Assembly (NCBI GenBank): GCA_963732135.1
Contig: CAVSYC010000004.1
Location: 34,484-98,483, forward strand
Direction of reading: 5' to 3'
Length of the DNA stretch: 64,000 bases
DNA from: an uncultured Acidobacteriota bacterium
GTDB lineage: Bacteria; Acidobacteriota; Terriglobia; Acidiferrales; UBA7541
Shown here: positions 2,053 through 61,931 of the stretch, piece after piece
How the letters are laid out: each line of letters begins with the position of its first letter
Numbering within the stretch: position 1 is the first letter of the stretch
The notes under the pieces: model-generated
Database searches by the model: none
Told to the model about the DNA's origin: nothing
What the model saw: only the letters and a program-made list of their open reading frames with translations
Position numbers and translations under genes: made by a program

Positions 2053-2066
2053 CCCGTGTATTCCTG

Positions 2067-3293
2067 ATGCGATTCGAATGGTTTGTCGCCCGGCGGCATT
2101 TACGGTCGCCGAACCGTCCAGCTGTGCTGCGGCTGGTTACCGCGTTCAGCATACTCGGGGTTATGGCAGGCGTGGCGACTCTGGTGATTGCGCTGGCGAT
2201 GAACACTGGATTTCGCGAAACGCTTCAGGATCGCCTACTCGGGGTGACCGCCCACATTTCGCTAACGCGGCCAGGGTCTGGTGGTATCCAGGATTACGAA
2301 GCGCTGGCAACTAAACTTTCGCGAATTCCAGGTGTAACGAGTGTGACTCCGGCCGTGTATCAAACGGTGTTGATGACATTCGGAGGAGAATCGCGCGGCG
2401 TGGTCGCAAAGGGAATCGAACCAGCTCGCGAAGAGGCTGCGGACGAAGCGCTGCGCAAACTGTTTTCAGGAAAGCTGGACTTTCAGTCCGATGCCGATGG
2501 TATTGATGCGCTGCTGGTGGGCAAACAACTGGCCGATGATTGGAGGCTTGGGCCCGGCGATTACGTGACACTGACCAGTCCGCAAGGCCGCCTGACGCCG
2601 TTCGGCCTGCTGCCACGAACCCGCCGATTTCGAGTAGCGGGAATTTTCGATTCCGGTTTTTATGATTATGATGCGAATTGGTGCTTCCTGAAAATAGATG
2701 CAGCGCAGGCACTCGCCGGCGCTTCGAATGTTGTAAACGTACTGGAGTTTCGATTACGGAATCCGGAAGCTGCTCCGGGGATCGCGCGTGAAATTGAGCA
2801 ACAAGCCGGCATGGGATTCGCGACGTCTACCTGGATGGAGCAGCAGCGAGCGCTGTTCCGGGCTTTGCGGCTGGAAAAACTGGTCACCGCCATTTTTATA
2901 GGGTTGATTACTCTAGTGGCGGGCTTGAATATTCTTGTGGTCCTCTCCATGACGGTGACCGACCGCGCGAAAGACATCGCGGTGCTGCGTTCGATGGGTT
3001 CGCGGTCGCGCCAACTGCGCACTATTTTCCTGTTGCAAGGATTTACGATCGGCGCAACGGGGACAATCCTGGGGCTAATATTAGGGTATTCGTTCGCGAT
3101 CATTGCAGCAAAATACCAGCTTATCCCGCTCGACCCACAGGTATACGCCGTACCTTACGTGCCGTTCCATCCGAGCGCGATGGACGGAGTGTGGATTTCA
3201 GTAGTAGCGATGGGAATATCGCTTCTCGCGACGATGGTGCCCGCGCGGGCTGCCGCGAAGCTGTTACCTGTGGAAATCCTTCGTTTTGAGTGA
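2067..3293 (+). CDS. LolC/LolE-family (FtsX/MacB-type) lipoprotein-releasing ABC permease
   Basis: MRFEWFVARRHL start, SILGVMAGVATLVIALAMNTGF TM1, periplasmic domain, AIFIGLITLVAGLNI and DIAVLRSMG motifs; followed by a LolD-like ATPase. Confidence 0.88.
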   Translation: MRFEWFVARRHLRSPNRPAVLRLVTAFSILGVMAGVATLVIALAMNTGFRETLQDRLLGVTAHISLTRPGSGGIQDYEALATKLSRIPGVTSVTPAVYQTVLMTFGGESRGVVAKGIEPAREEAADEALRKLFSGKLDFQSDADGIDALLVGKQLADDWRLGPGDYVTLTSPQGRLTPFGLLPRTRRFRVAGIFDSGFYDYDANWCFLKIDAAQALAGASNVVNVLEFRLRNPEAAPGIAREIEQQAGMGFATSTWMEQQRALFRALRLEKLVTAIFIGLITLVAGLNILVVLSMTVTDRAKDIAVLRSMGSRSRQLRTIFLLQGFTIGATGTILGLILGYSFAIIAAKYQLIPLDPQVYAVPYVPFHPSAMDGVWISVVAMGISLLATMVPARAAAKLLPVEILRFE

Positions 3294-3634
3294 GTTAGTC
3301 CCGCACAACGCAGTGCAAGTTTGGCCCCCGGCTTGCACTTTACTCCAATTGGAAGTGGCCCGAAATGCGGTTCGGTCGCGCCTCGAAAAGACCACATTTC
3401 GGCACCGCAGAAGTGCTTGATATGTAAATGCTTGCGAGATTCCCGAAATGGCGTTTTGCTTCCGGCTCCTCTCGACGGACTGATTGCTTGAAAAACGGGA
3501 CCAAACGGAAACAAACGATTCAGCGGGTGTAATGTTCCGAGGACGCCACAGTTCTGGCTATTTCTTGCATCTAATTGAGTGACGATAAGTAAGCAAGGGC
3601 CAAAGGATAAAAAGCTGGGATTGTTCTCTCAACC

Positions 3635-4444
3635 ATGAATGCCAGCGCTCCGAACTCGACGGCAAACGACGGCCAGCAAACGCTGGTCGCTGACGATGCC
3701 GGGAAAATTGTGTTGGAAGCGCGCGGACTGGGAAAGATATACGGTTCGGGTGAGCGTCAGTTAAACGTTTTTCAACAGCTGCATCTGACTTTGCATCAAG
3801 GCGAGATGGTGGCGATCGTCGCGCCGTCGGGCGCCGGAAAAAGCACGCTACTGCATCTGCTGGCAACTCTGGACACGCCAACAAGCGGTGCTATATACTT
3901 CGAATCGAAACACATTGAAACAAATGATGAAGCGGCGCTTTCGAATTTTCGCAATTGCGTCGTGGGATTTTTGTGGCAAAGGCATCAGTTGCTGCCGGAT
4001 TTTACGGCGGAAGAAAACGTAGCGATGCCGCTGCTGCTGCGCGGGGAGTCTATTTCGAGAGGCCGGGAAAAGGCGCGAAATTGGCTCGCGGAAGTAGGTC
4101 TGGCGGAGCGCGCCGGGCACCTCGCGGGAGAGCTTTCTGGTGGGGAACAGCAGCGCGTGGCGATCGCCCGGGCCCTCGTCACCAGGCCGCGCGTGCTGCT
4201 GGCGGATGAACCTACCGGAGACTTGGACGAGCGGAATGCTTGGGCCGTTTTCGAGTTGCTGGAGCGATTGCATCGCGCGCACGGATTGACGTCGTTGATT
4301 GCGACGCACAATCTTGCCCTTGCGCAACGCTGCGATCGAATTCTGGGACTGGAACACGGCGTTCTGCAGACTCGCAAGGACTTTGCCGGATCTCAGCCGG
4401 GGCAGTCTTTAGCGGGCAGGGACCCACTGGGAGAAACGAGCTAA
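3635..4444 (+). CDS. lolD: LolD-like lipoprotein-releasing ABC ATP-binding protein
   Basis: Walker A APSGAGKST, signature [30 protein letters not shown]; downstream of the LolC/E permease. Confidence 0.85.
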   Translation: MNASAPNSTANDGQQTLVADDAGKIVLEARGLGKIYGSGERQLNVFQQLHLTLHQGEMVAIVAPSGAGKSTLLHLLATLDTPTSGAIYFESKHIETNDEAALSNFRNCVVGFLWQRHQLLPDFTAEENVAMPLLLRGESISRGREKARNWLAEVGLAERAGHLAGELSGGEQQRVAIARALVTRPRVLLADEPTGDLDERNAWAVFELLERLHRAHGLTSLIATHNLALAQRCDRILGLEHGVLQTRKDFAGSQPGQSLAGRDPLGETS

Positions 4445-25941: not shown

Positions 25942-28900
25942 TTACGGCTCTGGCTCTGAAGGAGTCGGCGCGGGTGACGGTGCGCCCGCACCACCTGCCC
26001 CGCCACGCCCGGCGAATCTGGTCAACGACGTTCTCACGCGGTCACTCATCCGCCGCGGCGTCACCACGATCAACAATTCCGTGTCAGTCAACGAGGTATT
26101 CCGTTGCCCAAACGCGTAGCCTACGCCCGGCAAATTCGCCAGCCCCGGAATCCCGCTCAGCGATTTTGTTTCTTCGTTGTCCAGTAGCCCCGCGACGATC
26201 GAAGGTTCGCCTTCTTTCAGCCTGACCGTCTGCGAAACCGTGCGGTTGGTGATAATCGGAATTCCGTTTACGTTGTTCCCGGCCAGCGCTCGAATCTCGA
26301 ATTCCAACTGCAGCGTCACCTCATTTTCTTCATGCACCGTCGGAGTAGCTTTTACCTTAATTCCCAGATCTATATATTCCGATCCCGGATAGGGAGTCTG
26401 CTGCGCTCCGCCGATTCCCGATGCGAAACTCGAAGGGTCCAGCAGCACAGTTACAAAATTGTTGTTCCCTGAGCTGGCCGTCAGCACCGCGTCGGGCAAG
26501 CCGCTTGATGTCAGCAACGCGGTGATTAACGCCAACGGCCCCGGTGGCGTGCTCAATTCGATTCGCGATGAAAATTGTCCCGAGCCCAGACCTGCGTAAA
26601 CGCCCAGCGTGCCCGCTCCGTTATTGGTCACCGCGATGTCGCCAATTCCATCGTTTGTGAAGTCCGCAATCGCCACGCCCGCTGGAGTTGCCGCCGTTGC
26701 CAGCGGCGAGCCGGCAGCCGCGGTAAACACGCCAGTCGTGTCGTTCAGCAGCACCGTCACTGTATTCTCCGATTGGTTTACAACCGCGAAATCATCAATG
26801 TTATCGGCATTCAAATCGCCCACTGCAAAGGCCACCGGATCGGGGCCCGTCGCCACCGGCGACCCGCTCAATTCCGCAAACGTTCCGTTGAATGTGCTGT
26901 CACCCGTTGCCTGAAAAATTCCGATGTTCTGTGTCGCAGCATTTAACACGGCAATTTCCGGCCTGCCCGATTGGTCAAACGTGCCGGACAGCACCGCAAT
27001 CGGCCCCTTTTCCGCGCTTGGCAGTGCAAATGGCGACTTTGGAAACGGAGTGAACCCACCCTGCCCGTCGCCCTGAAAAACCGAAATGGTGTTGTCTCCC
27101 TGATTGATCACTGCAAAGTCCAGCAACCCATCGCCGTTGAAGTCCGCAATCACCACGCCGCTGGGCTTAGCCCCCACCGCGAACGGCGAACCCGTCGCCT
27201 CCGTGAATGTGCCATCAAAATTCTCGCTGCCCAGCAGCACGCTCACCGTATTCGATCCGCTGTTCGCGATCACCAGGTCCGCGGGCTGCACCAGGTGCGT
27301 CGCGTCTGTCAGACGAAAAATCTTGGAAGCGATGGCCGAAGGCAGCAGCTCGTTAGTGCCCAGTTTGATCGGCGATCCCGCGGTCGCGGTAAAATTTCCA
27401 TTATCGTTGTTAAATAAAATTGAGATGGAACCGTCGTTTTGATTCGCCACCGCCAGGTCCAGCAGCGCATCGTTGTTGAAATCCTGCGCCACAACCGCAA
27501 CCGGATTATTCCCAACCGCAAAATCCGTTCGCGCGAATACCGTCGAGGAAACAGCGCTCCCAACAGACGTTCCGCCCAGGCTCGTGGACAACAGCGACAA
27601 CGTCACCGGAAATCGCTGCCCCACAAAAAATGTTGCCGCTTTTCCATCCTGCGCCCGCATCAGGATTTGCCGACCGCTCTTCACCAGCGATAACCCGTTG
27701 GAAAATGTTGCGGACGCGCTCGGCATGGTCAGCAAAAACGTGCTTCTTCCTCCACCCACCGGCAAAACGTCCGTAGGGCTCGCTGTAATGCCATGTGCAG
27801 TAAACACCTGCGTCACCAATGAAAGTAAGTTCGTGATGTCGGTGGCCTGCTCCAATTGCGCAACGTCTGACGTGCTGAGCGGGAACGCTTGTACATTCGC
27901 CGGCGGCGTTATGCCCAGCGTTCTCGCCGCGTTTCGGTCCACTTCCAGCAGCTCGATATCCAGCATCACGTCCCGGCGCGCCTGCTCCAATTCCTTGATC
28001 AACTGTCCGGCCAGCGCCACTTTGTCCGCGCTTTCCCGCACCGTCAGGCTATGGTTGGCGATGTCCGTGGTAATGCGCGTCGAGTTCGTGATTTCGCGGA
28101 TCACCCGGACCATCTCTGTTATATCTTCCGGCGAAACGGTATTGTCCAGCCGGAATGTCTGCTCCAGTTCCTCCGCATACTCTTTGCGCTTGGCAATCGT
28201 GTCCTCGGCCACGAACATCAGCGTTGCATTCACCGCCCGGTAAAATGTTTTTGATTCCGCGCCCAGCAATTGCATCGCGGTATAGAAATCCACGTCGTTT
28301 ACTCGCAGCCTGATATTCTTCGACGCCAGGTCCGGGTCAAACGCCACCGTGATTCCGTACATCCTCGCCACTTGTTCGTACGCGCTCTTCGAATCTCCCC
28401 GCACATTCACGGCTTTTTTGCCCGGCTGCGGTTTCAGCGCCGACGATCCTTTTATCGCGTAATCTTCTTTGTCTCCGCGCGGCAGGTACTCCTTCATCTG
28501 CTTCATCTGCGCCAGCCGCTCCGCTACGATGGTATTTCCCGGATCAATCTTCAGCGCTTCATACATCAAGTCCGTTGCGCTTACGACGAACCCGTCCAGC
28601 GCATCAGTTTCCGCCTGGTCCACTAGTTTTTGCACCACCTCCGCGCGCCTTGCTGCGGCCCTGCGCACAATCCCGGCGTCTCCCGGAGCGCGCTTCACCG
28701 CCTGCTGGTATTCCGCCAAGGCCTCATCCATCCTGCCCGCGGCAAGAAATTTGTCGCCGCGATCAGCCAACTGCTCCGCCTGCTTGATATCTTCTTTCGA
28801 ATCCTTGGCGACTTGCGGTTTATTGGCAGCTTGGCCCAACGTTGCCGTTCCCGCGAGCAAGCAGACGGCGGCCACGCATACCGCACGGCCCAGCTGCCAT

Positions 28901-28956
28901 ACCGGGCTAGCTGCGGTCGACTGACTCCGCCCCTGTCGTAGATCTGCAATTTTCAT
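25942..28956 (-). CDS. Secretin (type II/III secretion system D-like) with N-terminal TPR and an internal 7x FG-GAP propeller
   Basis: Signal peptide, TPR helices, STN/N-domain (GITVAFDPDL), N3 (IANHSLTVRES), secretin strands DVMLDIELLEV, ATFFVGQRFPV, YIDLGIKVKATPTV, RTVSQTVRLKEGE, PGLANLPGVGYAFG, TELLIVVTPR; FG-GAP DFNxDGxxD repeats at about 26430-27535. Confidence 0.88.
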   Translation of the reverse strand: MKIADLRQGRSQSTAASPVWQLGRAVCVAAVCLLAGTATLGQAANKPQVAKDSKEDIKQAEQLADRGDKFLAAGRMDEALAEYQQAVKRAPGDAGIVRRAAARRAEVVQKLVDQAETDALDGFVVSATDLMYEALKIDPGNTIVAERLAQMKQMKEYLPRGDKEDYAIKGSSALKPQPGKKAVNVRGDSKSAYEQVARMYGITVAFDPDLASKNIRLRVNDVDFYTAMQLLGAESKTFYRAVNATLMFVAEDTIAKRKEYAEELEQTFRLDNTVSPEDITEMVRVIREITNSTRITTDIANHSLTVRESADKVALAGQLIKELEQARRDVMLDIELLEVDRNAARTLGITPPANVQAFPLSTSDVAQLEQATDITNLLSLVTQVFTAHGITASPTDVLPVGGGRSTFLLTMPSASATFSNGLSLVKSGRQILMRAQDGKAATFFVGQRFPVTLSLLSTSLGGTSVGSAVSSTVFARTDFAVGNNPVAVVAQDFNNDALLDLAVANQNDGSISILFNNDNGNFTATAGSPIKLGTNELLPSAIASKIFRLTDATHLVQPADLVIANSGSNTVSVLLGSENFDGTFTEATGSPFAVGAKPSGVVIADFNGDGLLDFAVINQGDNTISVFQGDGQGGFTPFPKSPFALPSAEKGPIAVLSGTFDQSGRPEIAVLNAATQNIGIFQATGDSTFNGTFAELSGSPVATGPDPVAFAVGDLNADNIDDFAVVNQSENTVTVLLNDTTGVFTAAAGSPLATAATPAGVAIADFTNDGIGDIAVTNNGAGTLGVYAGLGSGQFSSRIELSTPPGPLALITALLTSSGLPDAVLTASSGNNNFVTVLLDPSSFASGIGGAQQTPYPGSEYIDLGIKVKATPTVHEENEVTLQLEFEIRALAGNNVNGIPIITNRTVSQTVRLKEGEPSIVAGLLDNEETKSLSGIPGLANLPGVGYAFGQRNTSLTDTELLIVVTPRRMSDRVRTSLTRFAGRGGAGGAGAPSPAPTPSEPEP

Positions 28957-28983: not shown

Positions 28984-29004
28984 ATAGGACTAGATTAGTC
29001 CGAT
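28984..29004. promoter_or_regulatory. Imperfect palindrome, candidate operator in the divergent promoter
   Basis: ATAGGACTAG-A-TTAGTCCGAT (8/10 arm match; core GGACTA-gat-TAGTCC is perfect), abutting TTGACT. Confidence 0.4.
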
Positions 29005-29033
29005 TGACTTGCGAAGCCCCCAAGCGGTAAACT
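29004..29033 (+). promoter_or_regulatory. Sigma70-type promoter of the FTR1 operon
   Basis: TTGACT (29004-29009), 18-bp spacer, TAAACT (29028-29033). Confidence 0.55.
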
Positions 29034-29062
29034 TACAATTGTAGTTGCAACTCATTTACAAG
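29033..29062. promoter_or_regulatory. Candidate Fur-like operator
   Basis: AT-rich TTACAATTGTAGTTGCAACTCATTTACAAG containing palindromes TACAATTGTA and AGTTGCAACT; TGCAACT-C-ATTTACA matches 9 of 14 positions of the 7-1-7 Fur box TGATAAT-N-ATTATCA; lies at the predicted transcription start. Confidence 0.45.
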
Positions 29063-29114
29063 TAGACACCCGAACCTTAAGTCTCTACTACAACAACTTT
29101 CGACTGGATGTCTC

Positions 29115-30383
29115 GTGCTTTCTGCTTTCCTTATCTCGCTCCGTGAGGGCGTCGAAGCCGCCCTGGTTGTTGGCATCATACTAGTTTATCTTGCCCGCAC
29201 CGGGCGTTCGAATCTTACCCGCTTTGTCTGGGCCGGCGTCGCACTGGCTGGCGCTCTCAGCCTGGCCGTAGCCATTGCCCTCGAACGCTGGCAAATCAGC
29301 GAAGACGGCTTCGAAGGCCTGATGCTGCTGCTGGCCGCGGTCTTCGTCATTTCGATGATCCTTTGGATGAACCGCGTTGCGCGGCATCTGCGAAAAGATA
29401 TCGAGCAAAAAATTGAAAATTACGCGGTGCGCGCGGGTTCCGCCGCCGGATGGGGAATTTTTCTTTTCGTGTTTCTAATGGTGGTGCGCGAAGGCGCCGA
29501 GCTGGCGCTGATCTTGCGCGCCGTGCAGCTTTCCAGCGAAGGCATTCAGACCTGGATAGGCACGATTGCAGGCATCGCGGCCGCGATTGCCGTCGGACTA
29601 TTTTTCTTCAAAGGCACTTTGAAAATCCCGTTGCACCGTTTTTTTGCTGCGACGACGATTATTTTGTGGCTGGTTGCTGCCCAACTCGCGCTTACGGGTT
29701 TGCACGAGCTTAGCGAAGCGCAGTGGCTGCCTTCCGGCAAGCAGGAAATGGCGCTGATTGGGCCCATCGTTCGCAACGAAATTTTCTTCTTCGTATTTAT
29801 TTTTGGCGCGGCGGTGCTGTTGATTCTTCGCGAGTGGCTGACGGCCTCGCACGCCAAGCTCGAGGCTGCTGCCAACGATGCCGAGCGGCGCCTGCTTTCG
29901 GCACAGCAGCGCCGCCAGCGCAACTGGATGCTCGCCGCGGCTTCGGCTTGTCTCGCCGTCATTCTCGTTCTCACCGCCGATTTTATCTACGTCCGCGCCA
30001 ACTCCGCGCCGCCCTCCGCGCGCGCAATCGCGGCTTGCGGTTCTTCGCACGACGAACTCCGCGTGCCACTCAGCGAAGTGCAGGACGGCAACCTGCATCT
30101 TTTTAACGTTAAAACCGGCGATCAGTCTTTCCGCTTCCTGGTCATCAAGAAACCGCAAGGCTGGGGCGTAGCGCTCGATGCCTGCCGCATTTGCGGCGCG
30201 GAAGGCTATCGCCAGGACGGCCAAAATGTGATTTGCCGCCACTGCGGCTCCGCAATTTATGTCCCCACCATTGGCGAAGCCGGCGGCTGCAATCCCATAG
30301 GCGTACCCTTCCGCGTGGACGGCTCCGACATCGTGGTGAATGTCGCCGCCATCACCAAATCCTGGACGGAAGTGCCCAAATGA
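29115..30383 (+). CDS. FTR1-family iron permease fused to a C-terminal DUF2318 (Cys-rich, predicted Fe-S) domain
   Basis: Two REGxE motifs (REGVE, REGAE), TM helices, then LDACRICG...ICRHCG...GGCNP. GTG start. Confidence 0.88.
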   Translation: MLSAFLISLREGVEAALVVGIILVYLARTGRSNLTRFVWAGVALAGALSLAVAIALERWQISEDGFEGLMLLLAAVFVISMILWMNRVARHLRKDIEQKIENYAVRAGSAAGWGIFLFVFLMVVREGAELALILRAVQLSSEGIQTWIGTIAGIAAAIAVGLFFFKGTLKIPLHRFFAATTIILWLVAAQLALTGLHELSEAQWLPSGKQEMALIGPIVRNEIFFFVFIFGAAVLLILREWLTASHAKLEAAANDAERRLLSAQQRRQRNWMLAAASACLAVILVLTADFIYVRANSAPPSARAIAACGSSHDELRVPLSEVQDGNLHLFNVKTGDQSFRFLVIKKPQGWGVALDACRICGAEGYRQDGQNVICRHCGSAIYVPTIGEAGGCNPIGVPFRVDGSDIVVNVAAITKSWTEVPK

Positions 30384-30414
30384 AAGGGATGTCCACATTC
30401 CGTCAGAACAGCCC

Positions 30415-30468
30415 GTCATTCCGAGCGCAGCGACCGAGGGTTCCGACTTTGTCGGAAGGAATCTCTCT
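30415..30468 (+). repeat. REP-like element, family A, with an inserted hairpin
   Basis: GTCATTCCGAGCGCAGCGA-ccgaggg-TTCCGACtttGTCGGAA-GGAATCTCTC; the core matches 59481. Confidence 0.7.
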
Positions 30469-30482
30469 TCGATTCGTCGCTT

Positions 30483-30517
30483 TTCACGAGTCACTAGTCA
30501 CAAGTCACTAGTCACGA
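30483..30517. repeat. Heptamer tandem array (5 units)
   Basis: TTCACGA GTCACTA GTCACAA GTCACTA GTCACGA, ending 2 nt before ATG 30520. Confidence 0.7.
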
Positions 30518-30519
30518 AC

Positions 30520-31833
30520 ATGTTTCTCCGCCTCATCGCCGACAACTTCACACGCCGCCCGCGCCGCAAATTTCTCACCGCCGCGGCTCTGTCGCTAGGC
30601 ATGGCCGTAGCCACCGCCGCCCTCAGCGTCTCCCTCGACGTAGGCGACCGTCTCTCCGAAGAATTCAAATCCCTAGGCGCAAATCTGGTGGTCACTCCCG
30701 AAGCCGATTCGCTTCCCCTGGAAATCGGCGGCGTTGATTTCCGCCCGGCCAATTCCGGCGCCTATCTCCCCGAACCGGACCTCCCCAAAATCAAATCCGT
30801 CTTCTGGCACAACAACATCACCGCCTTCGCGCCCATCCTTGATTTACGGGTTCAAGCCCATCGGTATTCTTTGCCAGTTAGCACACCGATAGGGCCTGAG
30901 ACCAATGCCACACTGATTGGCACTTGGGCGAGCCACGCAGTTCACAATCCAGATGCGTCAAGCTTCATTACAGGAATCAAGAACGCGAATCCGTGGTGGC
31001 ATGTGGATGGCAAGTGGTTCGATGACAACGAGCGGGAATGCTTGATTGGCGCGGACTTTGCCAGAAGCCAAAAGCTGAAGACGAACGACACACTCTACAT
31101 ATACGCCGTAAGCAAGACGGTTCCCGTTATGGTTGAGCTGCGTATCGTTGGAATTCTAGACACTGGAGGCCCGGAGAATAATGCAATCGTCGCGCCGCTG
31201 ATGGTTGCTCAATGGCTCGCCGACAAGCCGGGCCAATACCGCAAACTCTACGTCTCCGCGTTGACTAAGCCTGAAGACGATTTTGCACGGCGCGACCCGC
31301 GAACCATGAAGCCAGACGAACTCGAACGCTGGTCCTGTTCACCGTACGTTTCTTCAATCGCGTATTCGATTAAACAGGTTCTGCCCGGTTCCGACGTCCG
31401 CGTAATCCGTCGCGTAGCCGATGGCGAAGGCAAAATTCTCACTCGCGTCCGTACGCTGCTCTGGCTGGTAACATTCGCATCTCTGCTGGCCGCCGCGCTA
31501 GCTGTAGGCGCATCCTCCGCCGCATCAGTCATCGAACGCCGCACCGAAATAGGCCTGATGAAAGCGCTAGGCGCAGCCTCCGGCACCGTCGGCTGGCTGC
31601 TTGCAGCCGAACAACTCCTCCTGGCATTCGTAGGCGGCTGCGCAGGCTACGCAGTGGGCTTGCTTCTAGCGCGTTTCCTCGGCACAAAAATTTTCGGTGT
31701 CCCGCCCGAACCCTCGCTGCTAGTCCTCGGCGTAATCCTCGTCCTCGCCGCCGCCGTAACCCTCCTCGGCAGCGCACTGCCGCTACGCCGCGCCGCCCAC
31801 TTTGATCCCGCGCCCATCCTCCGAGGCGAATGA
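30520..31833 (+). CDS. MacB/FtsX-type ABC permease (first of two)
   Basis: LGANLVVTP, periplasmic domain, YVSALTKPED, WSCSPY, ERRTEIGLMKALGA, C-terminal DPAPILRGE. Confidence 0.88.
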   Translation: MFLRLIADNFTRRPRRKFLTAAALSLGMAVATAALSVSLDVGDRLSEEFKSLGANLVVTPEADSLPLEIGGVDFRPANSGAYLPEPDLPKIKSVFWHNNITAFAPILDLRVQAHRYSLPVSTPIGPETNATLIGTWASHAVHNPDASSFITGIKNANPWWHVDGKWFDDNERECLIGADFARSQKLKTNDTLYIYAVSKTVPVMVELRIVGILDTGGPENNAIVAPLMVAQWLADKPGQYRKLYVSALTKPEDDFARRDPRTMKPDELERWSCSPYVSSIAYSIKQVLPGSDVRVIRRVADGEGKILTRVRTLLWLVTFASLLAAALAVGASSAASVIERRTEIGLMKALGAASGTVGWLLAAEQLLLAFVGGCAGYAVGLLLARFLGTKIFGVPPEPSLLVLGVILVLAAAVTLLGSALPLRRAAHFDPAPILRGE

Positions 31834-31865
31834 TGCGCATTGCTCATAGACCACGCGAAATGAAA

Positions 31866-31938
31866 ACCTGTCTAAAGGCCGCCCGCTACAACAGCAATCA
31901 AGCCCTCGCTTTTCGTAGCGGCCGACCTTCAGGTCGGT
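31866..31938. repeat. Divergent pair of GTAG-type REP elements (family B)
   Basis: Minus-strand TGTAGCGGGCGGCCTTTAGACAGGT (31866-31890) and plus-strand GTAGCGGCCGACCTTCAGGTCGGT (31915-31938). Confidence 0.7.
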
Positions 31939-31965
31939 GGTTTTTATTCTTCTCGGAGCGTTCCC

Positions 31966-33123
31966 ATGCCTGAGCGCCGCTCCGCTAACCGCACCATGTT
32001 CTGGCGCGTTCTCCGCCGCTCAGTCTTCGCCGACCGCGGCCGCCTTTTCGTCGTTCTTCTCGCACTGGGAGCTGGCGCCGCTATCACCGCCGCTCTCCTG
32101 AATCTTCAAGTCGATGCCAAGCGCCGCATCAACACGGAATTTAGCATTTTCGGGCCAAGCGCCCTCATTGTCCCAGCCGGTACCTCGGCGACCTTCGCAG
32201 AAACGAACTTCGATGAGTTGGTTAAGGGCGGACCGCTTTCGAATTCACGGGCGACTCTCCTCTTGATTAGTGAGGTGGCCACCCAGACCAGCCCGCAACG
32301 ATCGATGCGTGCGGTCGTAGCCGGAACCCGCCCACTCCAACGGATCGACGAGCCAGGCAGGATTATTGCGCCGTCAAGTCAATCTGAACCGTACGATAGC
32401 CGTCAACTCTGCTTCGCCGGCGGGCGTCTTGCTTCCCGGATGCAAATAAAGGTCGGTGACGAAGTCGTCCTCCGGAGTAATGGGCGCGAGGAACCTTGCA
32501 AGATCGCTAGCATCTGGCTTCACGGCGATTCCACAGACGACCAAATTATGCCCAGTCTCGGAATTGCTCAAAGGCTTGCGGGTCTCCCCGGGCGCATCAG
32601 CTTTATCGATCTCAGTCTACGAGGGAGTCCTGAAGAGCAAGGCTCCTACATTTCTAGTCTGCAGCATCGCTTTTCAGGATTGGAGGTACGTCCCCTTCGG
32701 GAATTCAATCAAGCACAAGTAAACATTTATAACCGTATCTCTGGAATTTTGACGGCCACTGTCGCGGTCGTGCTGCTTCTCACCGCCCTCTGTGTAATGG
32801 CCGCCATGACCAACGTCGCCATGGAACGCAAGAACGACGTCGGCTTAATGAAAGCCATCGGCGGCTCAGTTCGCCGCGTCCTGCGTCTTTTCCTCGCCGA
32901 GGCCGCGTTGCTCGGACTAGCAGGCGGATTGATCGGCGCAGCAATCGGCATCGCAGTCTCCATCGGCCTCGGCAAAGCCGTCTTCGGCGTAGCCGCGCAG
33001 CCTCGCCTCATCGTGTATCCTATTTCTGTGGCCCTCACGGTGGTTGTAGCGATTCTCGCGGCTTATCCGCTGCGCCGCCTAGTGCACATCCGTCCCGCAT
33101 CCGTCTTCCGAGGCGAAGAATGA
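31966..33123 (+). CDS. MacB/FtsX-type ABC permease (second of two)
   Basis: TM1 LLALGAGAAITAALLNL, ERKNDVGLMKAIGG, C-terminal [10 protein letters not shown]; overlaps the next ATG. Confidence 0.87.
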   Translation: MPERRSANRTMFWRVLRRSVFADRGRLFVVLLALGAGAAITAALLNLQVDAKRRINTEFSIFGPSALIVPAGTSATFAETNFDELVKGGPLSNSRATLLLISEVATQTSPQRSMRAVVAGTRPLQRIDEPGRIIAPSSQSEPYDSRQLCFAGGRLASRMQIKVGDEVVLRSNGREEPCKIASIWLHGDSTDDQIMPSLGIAQRLAGLPGRISFIDLSLRGSPEEQGSYISSLQHRFSGLEVRPLREFNQAQVNIYNRISGILTATVAVVLLLTALCVMAAMTNVAMERKNDVGLMKAIGGSVRRVLRLFLAEAALLGLAGGLIGAAIGIAVSIGLGKAVFGVAAQPRLIVYPISVALTVVVAILAAYPLRRLVHIRPASVFRGEE

Positions 33124-34370
33124 CCGCGCAAACACAAGTCGTGCCTAAGCTCGCCACGCAAGTCGTCATCGATGCGCTGGTCAAACAATACGGCGCGCTG
33201 CGCGCACTGAATGGCGTCTCCTTCGACATCGCACCCGGCGAATGGGTCGCGCTGATGGGTCCGTCGGGCTCCGGCAAGACCACGCTCATCAATATTCTCG
33301 GCGGCCTCGACACCCTCACCTCCGGCCGCGTCGTAGTGGACGGCGTCGATCTCGCAAAGCTCAACGAAAACGCCCTGGTACGTTACCGCGCAGAAAAAAT
33401 CGGCTTCGTCTTCCAGCAATTTCACCTCGTTCCGTATCTCAATGCAGTAGAAAACGTGATGCTGGCGCAATATTTCCATTCCGTCACTGACGAAAAACAA
33501 GCCGAGGAAGCGCTGAAGCATGTTGGCCTCGGCGAACGCCTTACCCATCTTCCATCGCAGCTCTCCGGCGGCGAACAGCAACGCGTAGCCATCGCCCGCG
33601 CCCTCATCAATCAGCCCAAATTAATTCTCGCCGACGAACCCACCGGCAATCTCGACGAAGCCAACGAACAAATCGTCATCAATCTTTTCCGCGATCTGCA
33701 CAAATCCGGCCACACCATCCTGATGGTCACGCACGATCCGGACATCGCGCGCCAGGCCGACCGCCGCATCGAGCTCGCGCACGGCCACTTGTCTTTTGAC
33801 ACAGCGCAGCACGGCCCCAATCATCCAATGGCTTGCCCGCTCGCCAATACCGCCGATTGCTGCACGCCAGTCACAGCCGACGACGATATCCGCGTGGATC
33901 ACCTGCTCGAACAAATCTGGATTTGCGGCGAAGAAGGCAAGCCCGCGCAGCCGGAACTGTTGCGCGTCGAAGGACCAGCCGGCCAGTTGCCAATTGTCGG
34001 CGCCGAACCGGCAACCCGCCTGCTCGCGCGCATGGCCGATTCGCGCCTAATCGAATTCAACGGAAACAAAAATGGAAACGCCACGAGCGTGCCAATCGAT
34101 TCAGCGAATGGCGCGGAAGTTCACCTGACCGAATCCGGCTCACGCCGCGCTCGCGACGTAGTCCGCCGCCACCGCCTCGCCGAACGCTTGTTCACGGACA
34201 CTTTCGCCATCGAAGATGCCGAAGCGCACGTGCAAGCCTGCCGCTTCGAACACATCATCACGCCCGAACTAGACCAGCGCATCTGCTCTTTCCTCGGCCA
34301 TCCCAAAACCTGTCCGCACGGGAATCCGATTCCACCGGGAGCATGTTGCGAGATAAACCCGAAAGACTGA
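33120..34370 (+). CDS. ABC ATPase fused to a C-terminal DtxR/IdeR-like metal-binding and dimerisation domain
   Basis: [36 protein letters not shown]; then RHRLAERLF...[10 protein letters not shown]...[13 protein letters not shown]. Confidence 0.88.
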
Positions 34371-34389
34371 TTACTGAAAACTTCTTCCC

Positions 34390-34782
34390 ATGCCCATTCC
34401 CATCGACCAGCGCCGCAAGCCCGCCAGCGTGAAAATTCACGTAAGCAGCGGCGCGGGTGTGGACATCGTCTGGGCCGACGGCCACGCCAGCCATTTTGAT
34501 TTTGCCTATCTGCGCGAAAATTGTCCCTGCGCCACCTGCAACGATGAACGCATCAAAAAGGAATCCCTCGGCGAAGCTTCCCCCGCCTTCGCTTCTTCTC
34601 CCGCGTTGCCCATGTTCAAGCCCAAGGCCCGCGCGGAATCCGCAACGCCAATAGGCCAGTACGCGATACAACTTTCTTTTTCCGATGGCCACTCCACTGG
34701 CATTTACTCCTACGACCATCTCCGTTCCATCTGTCCCTGCCAGGAATGCACCGCACAGCGCACGCAATCCATACGCGCCTAA
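34390..34782 (+). CDS. DUF971 (GBBH-like N-terminal) domain protein
   Basis: IVWADGH, YLRENCPCATC, GQYAIQLSFSDGHSTGIYSYDHL. Confidence 0.88.
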   Translation: MPIPIDQRRKPASVKIHVSSGAGVDIVWADGHASHFDFAYLRENCPCATCNDERIKKESLGEASPAFASSPALPMFKPKARAESATPIGQYAIQLSFSDGHSTGIYSYDHLRSICPCQECTAQRTQSIRA

Positions 34783-34904: not shown

Positions 34905-35762
34905 ATGGCTTGCGATCCTCAAGAATTAAGACACGTACCGCTTTTTGCGCTACTTGACGACGAGGAAGCCTGCGTCCTCGCTTCGCAGGTGGAAAAAAGA
35001 ACATTCACGCCGCGCCAGCGCATTTACAAAATCGGTGATACCGATGGAAAGGCGTACGTGATGTTCTCCGGCAAAGTGCGCGTAACCACCGTGGATGAGG
35101 ATCATCAGGAAGTGGTCATCGATGAACCGAGCCACGGCGAATTTTTCGGCTTCGCTTCGATGCTCGAGCAAACTCCGCACCAGACCAACGCCACCGCCGT
35201 TGAAGAAACGATTTGTATCGAGGTGGACCGTACCGACATCGCTGTGCTGCTCGAACGCAAGCCGCTGGCAGGAATGGACATGCTCACCGTGCTCGGCAAA
35301 CAGTTTCACGCCTCGCAGCTACTCGTGCGCCTTCGCGCCACACGCAATGCCAACGAAGTCATCGAGAAAGACGCAACCTTCGGAGAACGCATTGCCGACC
35401 ACGTGGCCGGCTTTGGCGGCTCGTGGACTTTCATTATTACTTTTCTCTCGTCGCTGCTGGCGTATTCCGCTCTCAGTATTTACATGGGCAAAAATTCCTG
35501 GGATCCCTATCCCTTTATTTTACTAAATCTTTTTCTGTCCATGCTTGCCGCCATTCAGGCCCCGGTGATCATGATGAGTCAGAATCGCCAGGACACCAAA
35601 GACCGCCTGCGTGGCGAACTCGATTACGACGTCAACCGCCGCGCCGAATCGGAAATCCAGGGCCTGGCCCGCAAGCTAAACGCTCTCGACGACAAGCTTT
35701 CCGACATCCACGGCCATCTTCACGGCGCCTCTTCCGACCCTTCGGGCGGCCCTGTTCGTTGA
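34905..35762 (+). CDS. cNMP-binding-domain plus DUF1003 membrane protein
   Basis: VPLFALLD...GEFFG cNMP fold; GERIADHVAGFGGSWTF, WDPYPFILLNLFLSMLAAIQAPVIMMSQNRQ (DUF1003). Confidence 0.88.
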   Translation: MACDPQELRHVPLFALLDDEEACVLASQVEKRTFTPRQRIYKIGDTDGKAYVMFSGKVRVTTVDEDHQEVVIDEPSHGEFFGFASMLEQTPHQTNATAVEETICIEVDRTDIAVLLERKPLAGMDMLTVLGKQFHASQLLVRLRATRNANEVIEKDATFGERIADHVAGFGGSWTFIITFLSSLLAYSALSIYMGKNSWDPYPFILLNLFLSMLAAIQAPVIMMSQNRQDTKDRLRGELDYDVNRRAESEIQGLARKLNALDDKLSDIHGHLHGASSDPSGGPVR

Positions 35763-35957
35763 CACCTGTGGCATTGCATTCCGTTTTTCGTAGTGTCGGC
35801 CCTTAGCGCGACCTCTTTCTTTTTCTTTCTTTTTTCTTGTTTTCCAGCCCCTCTAAAGCCCGTATTACAAGTTAGCGTCCTCCGCAAATATTTTTCATCC
35901 GCGCAATTCCGTGCGCGATAGCATTTCCCCAGTCCCGTCCCCCGGAAAGGTTCACCC

Positions 35958-36287
35958 ATGCCCGATGAACGCCGCCGATCTCCACGAATTCCATTTGCCG
36001 CGAGCGCCGAAATCATTGACGAAGCAGAAAATACCCGCAGCGCATCGCAAGTTTGCGATTTAAGCCTGCACGGCTGTTTTGTTCAACTCTCGAATCCGTT
36101 TCCGGAAGGCACTCCGGTCACCATCGAAATTTATAAAGACGAGGACTTCGTTGAAACGCCGGCAACCGTCGCCTATTTCATGCCCAAGCGCGGAATGGGA
36201 CTGACCTTCAACGGAATGGAGCCTCAGTTCGCCGCAGTCCTGAAAAAATGGCTCAGCCAACCGAAAATTACCGCGCGCCACGCTTGA
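35958..36287 (+). CDS. Single-domain PilZ protein
   Basis: ERRRSPR (RxxxR) and DLSLHG (DxSxxG) c-di-GMP motifs; GMGLTF. Confidence 0.88.
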   Translation: MPDERRRSPRIPFAASAEIIDEAENTRSASQVCDLSLHGCFVQLSNPFPEGTPVTIEIYKDEDFVETPATVAYFMPKRGMGLTFNGMEPQFAAVLKKWLSQPKITARHA

Positions 36288-54609: not shown

Positions 54610-55234
54610 GTACGCCGCGCATGCTCGACAGCTTGGAGGTGCAAGTCCTCTTCACAACCTGATAGAGGTGAAGTGATAGCGAAGCGCAAGGGCGTCGCTG
54701 CGAGGCGGGGTCTGAAGGAAGCGTGGAGCAAAAACGCGAGCCAATGTACAAGAACCGAATCTGAGGCGTGAGTGTCGGGCGAGCGGGCCAATGATCGCGA
54801 AGCCCATATCTATCAAGGACGCAAAGCGTAAATTCGGTGGTTGTGCGTGGAAAGCAGTCGAGCTTATCGCGGGAGATCTGTTGCATGTCTCGGATTCGGG
54901 ACTGAGCGTGGAGTAATTCACGCTGATCCTGCAGCAGAAGTCAGCAGCGGGCGTAGTACTCACGCGAGTGAGGAAGGCCCAAACAGTAAGAGTGAATAGT
55001 AGAACGTCGAACTCACGGGTGGCACTGCGCCAGCCAATCAGCTCCGGCTGAGCTTTACAGGTTCAGAAGACGGTGAAGCCGAAACGGAAACCTGCAGAGC
55101 GGCGAAGCCCTTGTGGCGGACGACGACTCGAACCTCCGGCCCGCAAGGGCTCAACTTGCTGAACCGCCGTATGCGGACCCGCCTGTACGGTGGTGTGGGA
55201 GGGGCGAGCAGGTGACTGCTCCCCCTATCCCGAT
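54610..55234 (+). mobile_element. ORF-less class IIC group II intron (625 nt)
   Basis: 5' GTACGCCGCGCATG; DI landmarks GAGGTGCAAGTCCTC, CGCAAGGG...TCTGAAGGAAGCG, GTAAAT, GGAAAG...CTTA..GGGAGATCTG; DIII CAGAAGTCAGCAG...GTAGTAC...GGAAGG...AAC; DV GAACCGCCGTATGCGGACCCGCCTGTACGGTGGT (55161-55194); DVI ending CCCCCTATCCCGAT with a bulged A. DIV is only about 176 nt. Inserted just after a terminator. Confidence 0.92.
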
Positions 55235-59525: not shown

Positions 59526-60494
59526 TCACTCCACGATCCAGAGGTTCTGCGCGAAGGGCCACTCTTCGTCAACCCACTGCGCAATTTGACGGAATCCTGC
59601 GCGCTCCGCCATTTCCGCCGGCTCATTGGGACGATACTTGTGCGAACTTTCCGTCCAGATGGTTTCGCCCTCTTCCATTCGAACCAGCAACGCCGCGCCC
59701 AAAATATTCACGCGCTGGCGACGCAGAGATTGCAGGTGCATTTCAATGCGGCGCTCGGCGGAATTCCACAGAGCGAGGTGGCGGAAATCGCGCAAGCGAA
59801 AATCCGCGCCGAGTTCACGATTGATGCGCGCCAGCAAGTTTAGATTAAACGCGGCGGTGACGCCGACTGGATCGTCGTACGCCAGAAGCTGTACGTTAAC
59901 ATCTTTTTCGAAGTCGGTGCCAAGCAGCAACGAATCGCCTGGTTCCAGAACCTCGCGGACCTGGTTAAGAAAATCGTTCGCGGCGGGCCGGTCAAAATTT
60001 CCGATGGTGCTGCCCAGAAAAAGCACGCACAAATGTTCGCCAGCTTCGCGCCGCGCCGCTACCGCGCGCAACCCTTCCAGGTAGGGCTTTTCGTAGCCCA
60101 CCATGCTCACACAATCCAGCCGGCCGAGTTCCTTTTCGCACGCGGCGAGAGCTGCCGGTGAAATTTCGATCGGGTAATAAAATGTCTGCCGCCGGCAAGC
60201 CAACGCTTCGAGCAGGTAACGTGTTTTTTTACCGCTGCCGCTTCCCAACTCCGCCACATGCGCTGGCAGAGGCATCCGCGCGATGATTTCGTTCGCGTGC
60301 CTCTGCAGCAAACGGGTGTCAGCGCGCGTCAAGCCATATTCCGGAAGCAGGCAGATGGCTTCGAACAATTCCGAGCCGACTTCGTCATACAAATATTTGC
60401 TGGGAAGCTCGCGCTGGCCGGGTTTCGTCAGCCCGGCGCGGACATCAACCGCAAAATCCGACAACACCAGTTGTTGCACGGTTTGGCTCGACAT
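59526..60494 (-). CDS. egtD: L-histidine N-alpha-methyltransferase EgtD
   Basis: KYLYDEVGSELF, LPEY.LTR, ELGSGSGKKT, FLGSTIGNF, AFNLNLL, RIEMHL, TESSHKY. Confidence 0.92.
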   Translation of the reverse strand: MSSQTVQQLVLSDFAVDVRAGLTKPGQRELPSKYLYDEVGSELFEAICLLPEYGLTRADTRLLQRHANEIIARMPLPAHVAELGSGSGKKTRYLLEALACRRQTFYYPIEISPAALAACEKELGRLDCVSMVGYEKPYLEGLRAVAARREAGEHLCVLFLGSTIGNFDRPAANDFLNQVREVLEPGDSLLLGTDFEKDVNVQLLAYDDPVGVTAAFNLNLLARINRELGADFRLRDFRHLALWNSAERRIEMHLQSLRRQRVNILGAALLVRMEEGETIWTESSHKYRPNEPAEMAERAGFRQIAQWVDEEWPFAQNLWIVE

Positions 60495-60521
60495 TTTTTC
60501 TCCTGAACCGGGAGTTGCGAT

Positions 60522-61850
60522 TTACTCTTCCACGCAACGAAAAGTTGCGTAGACGTACGGGTAATGGGGCTGGAACCAATTGCGGAAGGAACGCCGCAGC
60601 ATGCAGGCGGCAGTGCGCGGCGACCCTCCTTTCATCACGTAGTGCTTTCCATCGAAGAAATTTGCGGAGTAGCCTGGATAGAACGGCATCGGCGCGAAGC
60701 CGGGCAGCGGCGCAAACACGGTGCGCGTCCATTCCCAGCCATTGCCTACAAGGTCGTGTACTCCAAATGCGCTGGCGCCCTCCGAATGCGCTCCGCATGG
60801 CGCAGGATCAAAATGCGCGCAATCGAAATTGCCATGTTGCGGCCCTGGCTTTTCTTCGCCCCACGGATAACTGCGCTCTTCGTCGGAGTGTGGGACTCCA
60901 TACGCGGCGCGATGGAACTGCTCTTCGGTCGGCAACTTTCGATCCAGCCATTTCGCGTACGCGGATGCTTCGGCATAGCTCACGTATACCGGCGAGTCCA
61001 TCGACAGCGGGGTCTCGTTGAACATGCCGTGGTACGTCCACATATTGCCGCGGCGCTCCCAAAAAATCGGATGCTCGATGCCATTTTGTTCGCGCCAGAC
61101 CCAGTCGGCACTCGACCACAATGAGCGGTCTCGATATCCGCCGTTCTGCACGAAGTGCATAAACTGACGATTGGTGACGTTTTGATTCTCGATGCTGAAG
61201 GCGGGTACGCGAACCGTCAAAGCTCCGCGCTCGTTATCCCATCCAAAAGTTTTCGCGTCAGTGGGTAAGCCGAGCGTTGCAGGTCCTTCTGGAATTTCAA
61301 CCAGATGATGCCGGATGCGTGGGGCACTCCAGTGATGTTTGGGCGCCACTCGCATTTTCATTTCGAGCGGCAAGCGATGGAACATGTATGCCAATGTTTC
61401 CGCGTGCATCAAGCGATGCTCGATGGCCGTGTCCAGCATGGTCAGAAGCTGCGGATGCCCTTCGTCGGGATGGCCGAGCGCTCGATCGATTGCGGAATCG
61501 AGTTCAGCGCGCAGCCGTTCGTTGTATACGGAGATCTGCTCACGTGAAGGCCAATCTCGCGGTTGGTCCGCAGGCAGTCCGCCGCCGACTGGATCGATCC
61601 CGAAAGCAAAAAGATGGTCGAAGGAACGGTTGAAACGGCGTAGGCCAAACGCGCGCTCGCCAAGAAGATTCCAGTCAAATGCTTCTACGTGGCCCAGATA
61701 AAAAATAACGCGATGGCGTTCAGCAATCGGCCGCTCGTAAAACGCATCGTCGCGCAGGATTTCGAATAGCTGATCGGTTGTGGCCCTGGCACGGATAAGT
61801 CGAAGATGCTGATCGTGGCTGGTGCGGACTGCGGTGGCGAGAGCTCCCAT
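60522..61850 (-). CDS. egtB: EgtB-family non-heme iron sulfoxide synthase (DinB-like plus FGE-sulfatase domains)
   Basis: IFYLGHVE, HRLMHAE (HX3HXE), FGWDNE, LPTEEQFHRAA, DLVGNGWEWT, KGGS; upstream of egtD. ATG 61850 chosen; ORF is open to 61979. Confidence 0.88.
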   Translation of the reverse strand: MGALATAVRTSHDQHLRLIRARATTDQLFEILRDDAFYERPIAERHRVIFYLGHVEAFDWNLLGERAFGLRRFNRSFDHLFAFGIDPVGGGLPADQPRDWPSREQISVYNERLRAELDSAIDRALGHPDEGHPQLLTMLDTAIEHRLMHAETLAYMFHRLPLEMKMRVAPKHHWSAPRIRHHLVEIPEGPATLGLPTDAKTFGWDNERGALTVRVPAFSIENQNVTNRQFMHFVQNGGYRDRSLWSSADWVWREQNGIEHPIFWERRGNMWTYHGMFNETPLSMDSPVYVSYAEASAYAKWLDRKLPTEEQFHRAAYGVPHSDEERSYPWGEEKPGPQHGNFDCAHFDPAPCGAHSEGASAFGVHDLVGNGWEWTRTVFAPLPGFAPMPFYPGYSANFFDGKHYVMKGGSPRTAACMLRRSFRNWFQPHYPYVYATFRCVEE

Positions 61851-61931
61851 GATTTTTTCCCTTCCGTTTGATGCGGCGGCCAATTGAAGGATGCACCGAT
61901 TCCTCGGCGCTGGGAGGCTGGCTACGTTAGG

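Follow-up and report, generated by a model that had tools for sequence, protein, structure and literature searches.

An operon of five genes occupies positions 29115-34782 on the forward strand of a 64-kb stretch of DNA from an uncultured Acidobacteriota bacterium (hereafter the window, meaning the whole stretch that was analysed). In order, the genes code for a fusion of an FTR1 iron permease with a DUF2318 domain, two MacB/FtsX-type permeases, an ATP-binding cassette (ABC) ATPase fused to a module resembling the iron-dependent repressors IdeR and DtxR, and a small DUF971 protein. An initial annotation of this DNA had placed the five genes and both fusions at these coordinates and had taken them for a relative of the Fet (FetMP-FetABCDEF) iron-uptake system. 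A Pfam domain scan of 47 open reading frames (ORFs) across the window, with gathering cut-offs applied, bears out this layout, and the kinship with Fet likewise stands, with orthologues of FetB, FetC and FetD found in order. The earlier observation is confirmed, and its interpretation is partly supported.

The first gene (29115-30383) encodes a protein of 422 amino acids (aa) in which FTR1 (aa 1-211; 142.9 bits against a gathering score of 25.3) and the FtrD-like/DUF2318 family PF10080 (aa 322-415; 87.7 bits against 26.3) do lie on one polypeptide. Its permease body (29115-29843, aa 1-243) is predicted to have seven transmembrane (TM) helices and carries two REXXE motifs, REGVE at aa 10-14 in TM1 (29142-29156) and REGAE at aa 125-129 in TM4 (29487-29501), with residues that are either invariant or conserved to at least 90% across 42 diverse relatives, the set on which residue conservation of the fusion protein was judged. 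Among the NCBIfam models this part comes nearest to EfeU, with 171.5 bits, which is under the 255-bit equivalog cut-off. By sequence, this body with its pair of REXXE motifs qualifies as a bona fide FTR1 permease and a putative channel. A basic linker assigned to the cytoplasm (AERR...RRQRNW) and TM8 follow (29844-29999, aa 244-295), and the protein ends in a predicted periplasmic, beta-rich DUF2318/FtrD-like Cys domain (30000-30383, aa 296-422). The motif CxxC-x13-CxxC-x14-C of this domain (C357...C392, encoded at 30183-30290) is invariant in the 42 relatives, as are the individual residues D355, C357, C360, C374, C377, C392 and P394.

A model of the fusion protein made with AlphaFold2 (AF2) from the 42-sequence alignment has a mean predicted local distance difference test score (pLDDT) of 89.7, and shows seven TM helices in the FTR1 body and one long helix that spans linker and TM8. 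The C-terminal domain is beta-rich in the model, and its block means of pLDDT are mostly 91-97. Lysines and arginines number 18 in the inside loops and 3 in the outside loops, in agreement with an N-terminus on the outer side and a periplasmic Cys domain; loop charges and the modelled topology together thus fit a periplasmic DUF2318 domain. R259 in the linker is kept in 41 of the 42 sequences. Export of the Cys domain through the twin-arginine translocation (Tat) route, by a signal ahead of TM8, was considered and found unsupported, there being a single invariant arginine, located about 13 residues ahead of the hydrophobic stretch. A PDB sequence profile search returned no match for FTR1 or DUF2318, and Foldseek with the model of the whole protein returned no PDB match at E<0.4. 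Pfam detects no YHS domain in the window protein; among 59 full-length representatives of the family about 12 have a C-terminal extension, a YHS-type pattern matches five, and Pfam places a YHS domain in each of the three longer relatives examined.

The next three genes are orthologous to known Fet components. E. coli FetB scores 245.9 bits on the first permease and 108.6 on the second, FetC 147.6 bits on the second and 110.2 on the first, and FetD 273.5 bits on the operon ATPase as against 158.6 on the other MacB-type ATPase of the window. This pattern is consistent with one-to-one orthology, and the operon therefore reads as fetA-fetB-fetC-fetD in canonical order. The fetB orthologue (30520-31833) encodes a MacB_PCD plus FtsX permease by Pfam; its mechanical ORF opens at 30340, and relatives together with a typical N-terminus (MFLRLIADNF...) make 30520 the most likely start. 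For the fetC orthologue (31966-33123) the same kind of evidence points to 31996 as the likely start, and here Pfam sees FtsX only (47 bits), whereas the orthologue FetC has the periplasmic core domain (PCD) as well.

The ATPase is a protein of 416 aa (33120-34370), of which aa 1-235 (33120-33824) form a MacB/LolD-type ABC domain, the FetD orthologue according to the E. coli FetD score. ABC_tran is matched at aa 30-175 with 127 bits, and Walker A, signature, Walker B and H-loop are all present in the translation. In NCBIfam the protein falls among LolD, MacB and FtsE, and the closest PDB sequences are the uncharacterised ABC ATPase 5xu1, followed by LolD and MacB, with YbbA also among them. The family assignments sustain the earlier placement of this part in the type VII ABC systems: like MacB, LolCDE and FtsEX, it has an FtsX four-helix TM domain, a periplasmic core domain and a LolD/MacB/YbbA-like nucleotide-binding domain (NBD). 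In contrast to those systems, no MacA adaptor or TolC gene accompanies it, and the NBD bears a metal-sensor extension. A second MacB-type permease (MacB_PCD plus FtsX) with an ABC ATPase lies at 1869-4444 (+) beside the lysyl-tRNA synthetase gene and is, by sequence comparison, unrelated to the Fet-like operon.

The extension of the ATPase (33825-34370, aa 236-416) had initially been described as a DtxR-like domain. The module is indeed present; it proves, however, to be a two-domain IdeR-like unit with a degenerate winged helix-turn-helix (wHTH) and not the C-terminal domain alone. Pfam matches Fe_dep_repr_C (PF02742) at aa 337-405 (98 bits against 27), and the C-terminal part of the ATPase (its last 186 residues) gives an ungapped alignment to IdeR/DtxR residues 57-133. 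All six domain-2 ligands of the two metal sites in IdeR (H79, E83, H98, C102, E105 and H106) are kept, the corresponding residues being encoded at 34170-34253. Among the 64 homologues on which conservation of the module was judged, the primary-site residues C374, E377 and H378 (ATPase numbering) plus E355 are invariant, H351 is kept in 55 and H370 in 48. Foldseek aligns an AF2 model of the module (pLDDT 77) with two-domain IdeR/DtxR structures over 147-156 columns, with target-based TM-scores (TMt) of 0.70-0.80. The match spans both IdeR/DtxR domains, so that part of the module corresponds to the DNA-binding domain. Pfam gives no match in the module to PF01325, the N-terminal HTH domain, and in the model the helix-2 region of the HTH is non-helical and modelled with less confidence (block-mean pLDDT 72-74) and the wing has an insertion, which makes the wHTH appear degenerate and DNA binding doubtful.

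The module further differs from IdeR/DtxR repressors in its fusion to an ABC ATPase and in having no SH3-like third domain, as the protein ends 11 residues past the PIP motif. A third difference lies in nine more Cys and His residues near the core that are conserved in nearly all covering sequences (C239, C247, C248, C389, H394, C398, H400, C409 and C410); their conservation suggests that a further site for a metal or an Fe-S cluster lies beside the core of the sensor. By analogy we favour an allosteric role for the module, in which Fe(II) binding would restrain the ATPase. The trans-inhibited transporters MetNI and ModBC-A likewise carry a C-terminal ligand-binding domain on the NBD, although this is an analogy only; both the regulatory fold and the ABC type differ.

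Directly after the ATPase, at 34390-34782, comes the DUF971 (GBBH-like_N) gene (PF06155, 91 bits), encoding a small protein with two CxCxxC motifs whose cysteines are invariant in 19 orthologues. Its presence in the operon, remarked on in the initial annotation, holds for the window and for a single clade of relatives, 18 of 65 loci, and DUF971 is an accessory of that clade, outside the core. Cofitness data led to the description of the DUF971 family as "FeS cluster maintenance", and DUF971 mutants are sensitive to cobalt (bioRxiv 10.1101/072470). A metagenomic protein of 294 aa (P0451) appears to be a read-through from the ATPase C-terminus and sensor module into DUF971 (PF02742 plus PF06155), and hints that these two act together.

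The fused protein is widespread. Among 90%-identity protein clusters it has about 7,900 relatives at E<=1e-5; the best 120 all contain both Pfam domains, come from Acidobacteria ('Candidatus Acidoferrum') and are named "Fe-S-containing protein" or "DUF2318 domain-containing protein" at NCBI, the Fe-S label being itself a prediction. Within the top 150 of the 50%-identity representatives, examined as a diversity set, 59 are full-length fusions, reaching down to 26-30% identity, and 57 of these keep both REXXE motifs. In a survey of species-representative genomes, the best 80 loci returned, from about 80 species, all had the full-length fusion; nearly all were labelled Acidobacteriota (Acidoferrales, Terriglobales, Bryobacterales), and the window is about 95% identical to one of them. 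For gene order, 65 loci extended far enough downstream to be counted: the fused gene is followed by the two permeases and the ATPase in every one (65/65), the DtxR-like sensor module is present on the ATPase in 55, and the 18 loci with a DUF971 gene all belong to the window's clade. Assembly or frameshift artefacts were considered as a source of the fusions and ruled out because the fusion is conserved across 79 species-level loci, several on contigs of at least 1 megabase. One distant relative (P0203; L087 10001-13600) has the fused gene followed by an FtsX permease and a 369-aa protein without a Pfam family, with no ABC ATPase gene adjoining the fused gene. The FTR1-DUF2318 operon variant is thus visible in the databases; as far as the searchable literature on FTR1-DUF2318 fusions, ABC-DtxR fusions and FTR1 in Acidobacteria shows, it has not been described.

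The initial annotation had also pointed out that the operon has no P19, cupredoxin or thioredoxin-like gene, and this proved correct: in the 47 scanned ORFs Pfam matched neither P19 (PF10634) nor EfeO, cupredoxin, Dyp peroxidase or thioredoxin. As a direct query for P19 we used FetP from the canonical E. coli plasmid fet cluster (locus L082), which was read for comparison. With the threshold relaxed to E<=10, it still had no match in the window translated in six frames, nor in the ORFs of 81 related loci within <=10 kb per side. FetE-like matches occurred in just 4 of the 81 loci. The window has no thioredoxin-like FetE/FetF or FMN (flavin mononucleotide)-binding protein, and no separate FetM permease next to P19/FetP. 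Around the operon lie housekeeping genes (LysRS, Clp ATPase, BamA, NusA, IF-2, TruB), and the conserved neighbours in Terriglobales loci are UvrA, a tetratricopeptide repeat (TPR) protein, an SprT-like protein, a racemase, TonB, IleRS, LspA and two small proteins without a Pfam family, with no recognised iron partner among them.

In canonical systems FetA consists of eight TM segments, DUF2318 and YHS, and in Campylobacter jejuni fetA, fetB, fetC and fetD are each required for growth at low iron (PMC10783030). C. jejuni FetA also carries the CxxC-x13-CxxC-x14-C motif, and P19 always adjoins the permease in canonical systems, with a gene order identical in all 33 species (PMC6083913). The acidobacterial protein and canonical FetA have the same series of TM segments. 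Aligned with hhalign, the full-length fusion protein and E. coli FetA give a single collinear match (Prob 99.9%); even the linker and TM8 alone, which lie outside the Pfam domain, match enterobacterial FetA (Prob 97.6%, E 4.4e-12, against 0.13 for the reversed control). Because canonical FetA already has eight TM segments and DUF2318 and is collinear with the window protein, we prefer a FetA-type reading of the latter. The earlier claim that put FTR1 and DUF2318 in one polypeptide stands; a FetM newly fused to FetA is the less fitting reading of it. On sequence grounds the protein is best read as a FetA-type protein with a putatively working FTR1 channel in a fetABCD-only operon, and not as a recent join of FetM and FetA.

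In a further family member, P0258, neither REXXE motif is left, and PF10080 is the sole annotated family. The 7-TM body of P0258 nevertheless matches the FTR1 body over 234 columns (hhalign Prob 99.1%, E 1e-18, 61.9 bits) and is, by this sequence comparison, clearly FTR1-derived; against enterobacterial FetA the E value is 0.007 only. P0258 is preceded by a P19 gene, whose product shares 60% identity with E. coli FetP (E 2e-57), by a gene of the thioredoxin fold (Redoxin) and by a 53-aa ORF, and is followed by a FetB-like gene. The pattern is that no P19 lies within reach where REXXE is intact (0/81 loci), and that P19 is present where REXXE is lost (P0258). With P0258 lying downstream of P19, canonical FetA may be a second permease subunit that has degenerated.

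Set against known systems, the operon shares with FetMP-FetABCDEF (C. jejuni cj1658-1665 / CJJ81176_1649-1656; E. coli, Yersinia) the FetA-type protein with its periplasmic DUF2318 domain and Cys motif, the FetB, FetC and FetD orthologues in the same order, a MacB-type ABC part and, probably, iron-responsive regulation. It differs in having no FetM, P19/FetP, FetE/FetF thioredoxins, FMN-binding protein or YHS domain, and in having an intact FTR1 body with REXXE, the IdeR-like module on FetD and the added DUF971. EfeUOB (E. coli, B. subtilis) offers a permease that, like the FTR1 body of the window, has seven TM helices and two REXXE motifs, and the EfeU model gives that body its best score; plasmid-borne efeU genes are 33-42% identical to it. 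Unlike EfeUOB, however, the window protein falls under the EfeU cut-off, stands without EfeO and the EfeB peroxidase, and has the extra TM8 and Cys domain and the ABC coupling. Fet3p-Ftr1p of yeast and FtrABCD of Bordetella and Brucella pair an FTR1 channel with a metal or redox partner outside the cytoplasm, and the operon would follow the same logic. In the window that partner would be the attached DUF2318 domain, and no gene for a multicopper oxidase, P19, cupredoxin or polyferredoxin is present.

The region upstream of the fused gene, a 158-bp divergent intergenic region, contains a candidate promoter and, overlapping it, a conserved candidate operator. A consensus scan gave a sigma-70-like promoter candidate at 29004-29033 (+; TTGACT, 18 nt, TAAACT), which by itself is not above chance; relatives retain a TTGAC...TA(A/G)ACT layout in their upstream regions. 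Directly 5' of the -35-like hexamer, at 28985-29003, is an imperfect palindrome, TAGGACTAGATTAGTCCGA, that is identical in L002, L004 and L005, diverged in L006 and absent from more distant loci. Ten nucleotides past the -10-like hexamer begins a 21-bp palindromic operator candidate, AGTTGCAACTCATTTACAAGT (29043-29063), which matches on both strands and is unique in the window, where 0.14 chance matches are expected. Motif scans covered 1.5 Mb of loci plus the window, and all 35 matches to the operator motif of the window's clade (motif A) fell just upstream of the fusion gene. In Terriglobales loci its place is taken by TTGAAATTGAAATTCATTTTCAA, all 69 matches of which likewise lie immediately before the fusion gene; by our own comparison, TTGAAATTGAAATTCATTTTCAA and the classical Fur box agree at 14 of 19 positions. 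Loci in which the ATPase has no module (L009, L011, L013, L021) conserve the operator equally well, which points to a separate regulator binding the candidate operator. Regulation of the operon is probably iron-responsive. On a metagenomic contig (L083 330-2388), a FUR-family gene overlaps the start of a gene encoding FTR1, DUF2318 and YHS.

Two spacers interrupt the coding sequence. The first, of 136 nt between the fusion gene and the first permease (30384-30519), contains a repeat element and AGTCAC-type short tandem repeats. One contig from a soil metatranscriptome joins 30383 directly to 30519, and hence comes from a relative without the spacer. Depth over the spacer is about 4-7 times that of neighbouring bins, and loose ends fall at about 30413-30471; both observations point to a sequence that recurs in soil metagenomes. 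The spacer looks like a small insertion of the REP (repetitive extragenic palindrome) or MITE (miniature inverted-repeat transposable element) type. The second spacer, between the permease genes, holds a terminator-like hairpin found by a hairpin scan (31921-31938 (+); GCCGACC...GGTCGGT) and followed by GGTTTTTATT, which could attenuate expression of the downstream genes. This spacer is missing in many relatives, where the permease genes, unlike those of the window, abut or overlap. No Rfam family was matched inside the operon. Small metatranscriptome contigs, of which two show no differences, map to the fused gene, the two permease genes and the ATPase gene and lend weak support to transcription of the operon.

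Our best explanation, which we consider probable, is that the locus is a conserved, iron-regulated operon of Acidobacteriota made of a fetA-fetB-fetC-fetD core without FetM, P19 and thioredoxins. Periplasmic iron would be handled at the Cys-rich DUF2318 domain, by binding, by a redox step or by both, with a disulfide, Fe, Cu, Zn or Fe-S as candidate cofactors; tethered above the channel, this domain would fill the partner role that P19, EfeO or Fet3 has elsewhere, and iron would then enter through the REXXE channel of the same polypeptide. FetBC, powered by FetD, would perform mechanical work on the periplasmic side in the manner of MacB, aiding the iron step and carrying no iron themselves. 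As cytosolic Fe(II) rises, it would bind the IdeR-like module and restrain the ATPase, a feedback at the protein level comparable to trans-inhibition in MetNI and ModBC, and transcription would come under separate repression at the operator. For the clade of the window, DUF971 may connect incoming iron to the supply of Fe-S clusters. A bolder form of this explanation, possible but in our judgement rather doubtful, is that FetA-type proteins as a group descend from FTR1 and that the acidobacterial form is a self-sufficient, P19-independent importer, its Cys domain replacing the soluble partner and its ATPase being switched off by cytosolic Fe(II) via the IdeR-like domain. If true, this would be the first DtxR-family sensor used for post-translational control of a transporter instead of DNA binding.

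Several points weigh against the explanation we favour. We infer the functions of all operon members from their sequences. Known FTR1 permeases work with a redox or metal-binding partner, a role that we likewise infer for DUF2318, and the role of FetBCD is unsettled even in C. jejuni (PMC10783030). The view of canonical FetA as a degenerate FTR1 leans on one intermediate, P0258, and on collinearity; the 7-TM body of enterobacterial FetA matches FTR1 with an hhalign E value of 0.015 against 0.054 for the reversed control, which is not significant, and we make no claim of FTR1 homology for it. The sensor module is absent in 10 of the 65 loci and DUF971 in 47, so the core can do without either. 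Evidence from RNA is thin, and the metatranscriptome contigs may include DNA. Finally, the partner search reached the 64-kb window and the flanks of the loci, and P19, EfeO or a multicopper oxidase could sit elsewhere in the genome.

This last point opens the way to a standard system, in which a P19-, EfeO- or cupredoxin-type partner and a source of reductant are encoded elsewhere and co-regulated, and only the arrangement differs. To our knowledge all characterised FTR1 permeases do have a partner (Fet3-Ftr1, EfeUOB, FetMP, FtrABCD). We nonetheless regard this as unlikely, given that no partner gene lies in the 64 kb of the window and no P19 within 10 kb in the 81 loci, that canonical systems keep P19 adjacent to the permease without exception (PMC6083913), and that P0258, the sole family member found near P19, is without REXXE motifs. 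A second possibility concerns the substrate: the cassette might not import iron at all. Its task might instead be the handling of a different metal such as Mn, Cu, Zn or Pb, export, or maturation in the periplasm, and the FTR1-like body would then be a channel of different specificity. Some FTR1-family members are tied to other metals, and both the YHS domain and the CxxC motif are typical features of copper proteins. ABC systems of the MacB type export or extract their substrates and are not importers, and the cobalt sensitivity of DUF971 mutants fits as well. Yet both REXXE iron motifs are kept, and the sensor retains the Cys102-type primary site of the iron sensors IdeR and DtxR, a Cys that Mn-specific DtxR relatives replace. 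The upstream box of the Terriglobales is Fur-like, a fur gene adjoins the FTR1 gene in L083, and orthologous fetABCD genes give iron-dependent phenotypes (PMC10783030); a metal other than iron or a function other than import is, with these facts in hand, the least probable of the alternatives and in our view very improbable.

The third alternative leaves iron import in place and changes the task of the module. The IdeR-like unit might be a working DNA-binding repressor, such that Fe(II)-loaded FetD binds the palindrome and shuts its own operon as a membrane-tethered one-component regulator. Foldseek does align the module to both the DNA-binding and the dimerisation domain of IdeR/DtxR; helix 1 (DHLLEQIW) is conserved, as is an "ARM" stretch that aligns by eye to the recognition helix; and a conserved palindrome sits over the likely transcription start. 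Against this stand the failure of Pfam to detect PF01325, the non-helical helix-2 region and the insertion in the wing, and the operator itself, which is kept just as well in the four loci lacking the module and is, by our own comparison, unlike the IdeR/DtxR box, its Terriglobales version resembling a Fur box. We therefore hold repression by FetD to be improbable, somewhat more so than a partner encoded elsewhere, and retain allosteric restraint of the ATPase as the favoured role of the module.

On the other side of the intergenic region that precedes the operon, at 25942-28956 (-), a divergent gene encodes a 1004-aa secretin with TPR and FG-GAP repeats; this divergent arrangement is kept in about 22 loci of the Acidoferrales-like clade, and the secretin may be an outer-membrane partner or may reflect mere synteny of the clade. 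After DUF971 follow, at 34905-36287 (+), genes for a cyclic nucleotide monophosphate (cNMP)-binding and DUF1003 membrane protein and for a PilZ protein. Both are kept at this position only in the closest relatives (L001, L002, L004, L005), and the DUF1003 gene alone in L006.

Two further loci of the window were recorded in passing. At 54694-55234 (+), three Rfam matches above the gathering score fall within about 540 nt and represent parts of a group II intron: D1-D4-3 (124.8 bits), D1-D4-1 and domain V/VI. Among the ORFs scanned to both sides of it, none matched a reverse-transcriptase family, and the element may be a compact, ORF-less group II intron. At 59526-61979 (-) lie two adjoining genes, one with Methyltransf_33 (a histidine-specific S-adenosylmethionine methyltransferase) and one with FGE-sulfatase plus DinB_2; this EgtD/EgtB-type domain pair points to probable ergothioneine biosynthesis.

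The operon described here bears on what FetA and FetBCD do in Campylobacter, uropathogenic E. coli and Yersinia, a question still unsettled (PMC10783030). The natural join of an intact FTR1 channel with the FetA Cys domain is Rosetta-stone evidence that both act together at the channel, and the ATPase-IdeR fusion, with the apparent P0451 read-through, would tie FetBCD activity to the iron status of the cytosol. With four genes rather than eight, the cassette also offers a smaller system for biochemical and structural work on Fet. It is very common in soil Acidobacteriota, where its protein clusters run to thousands and the best matches alone cover about 80 species-level genomes, and may be a main route of iron uptake in this abundant and hard-to-culture phylum.

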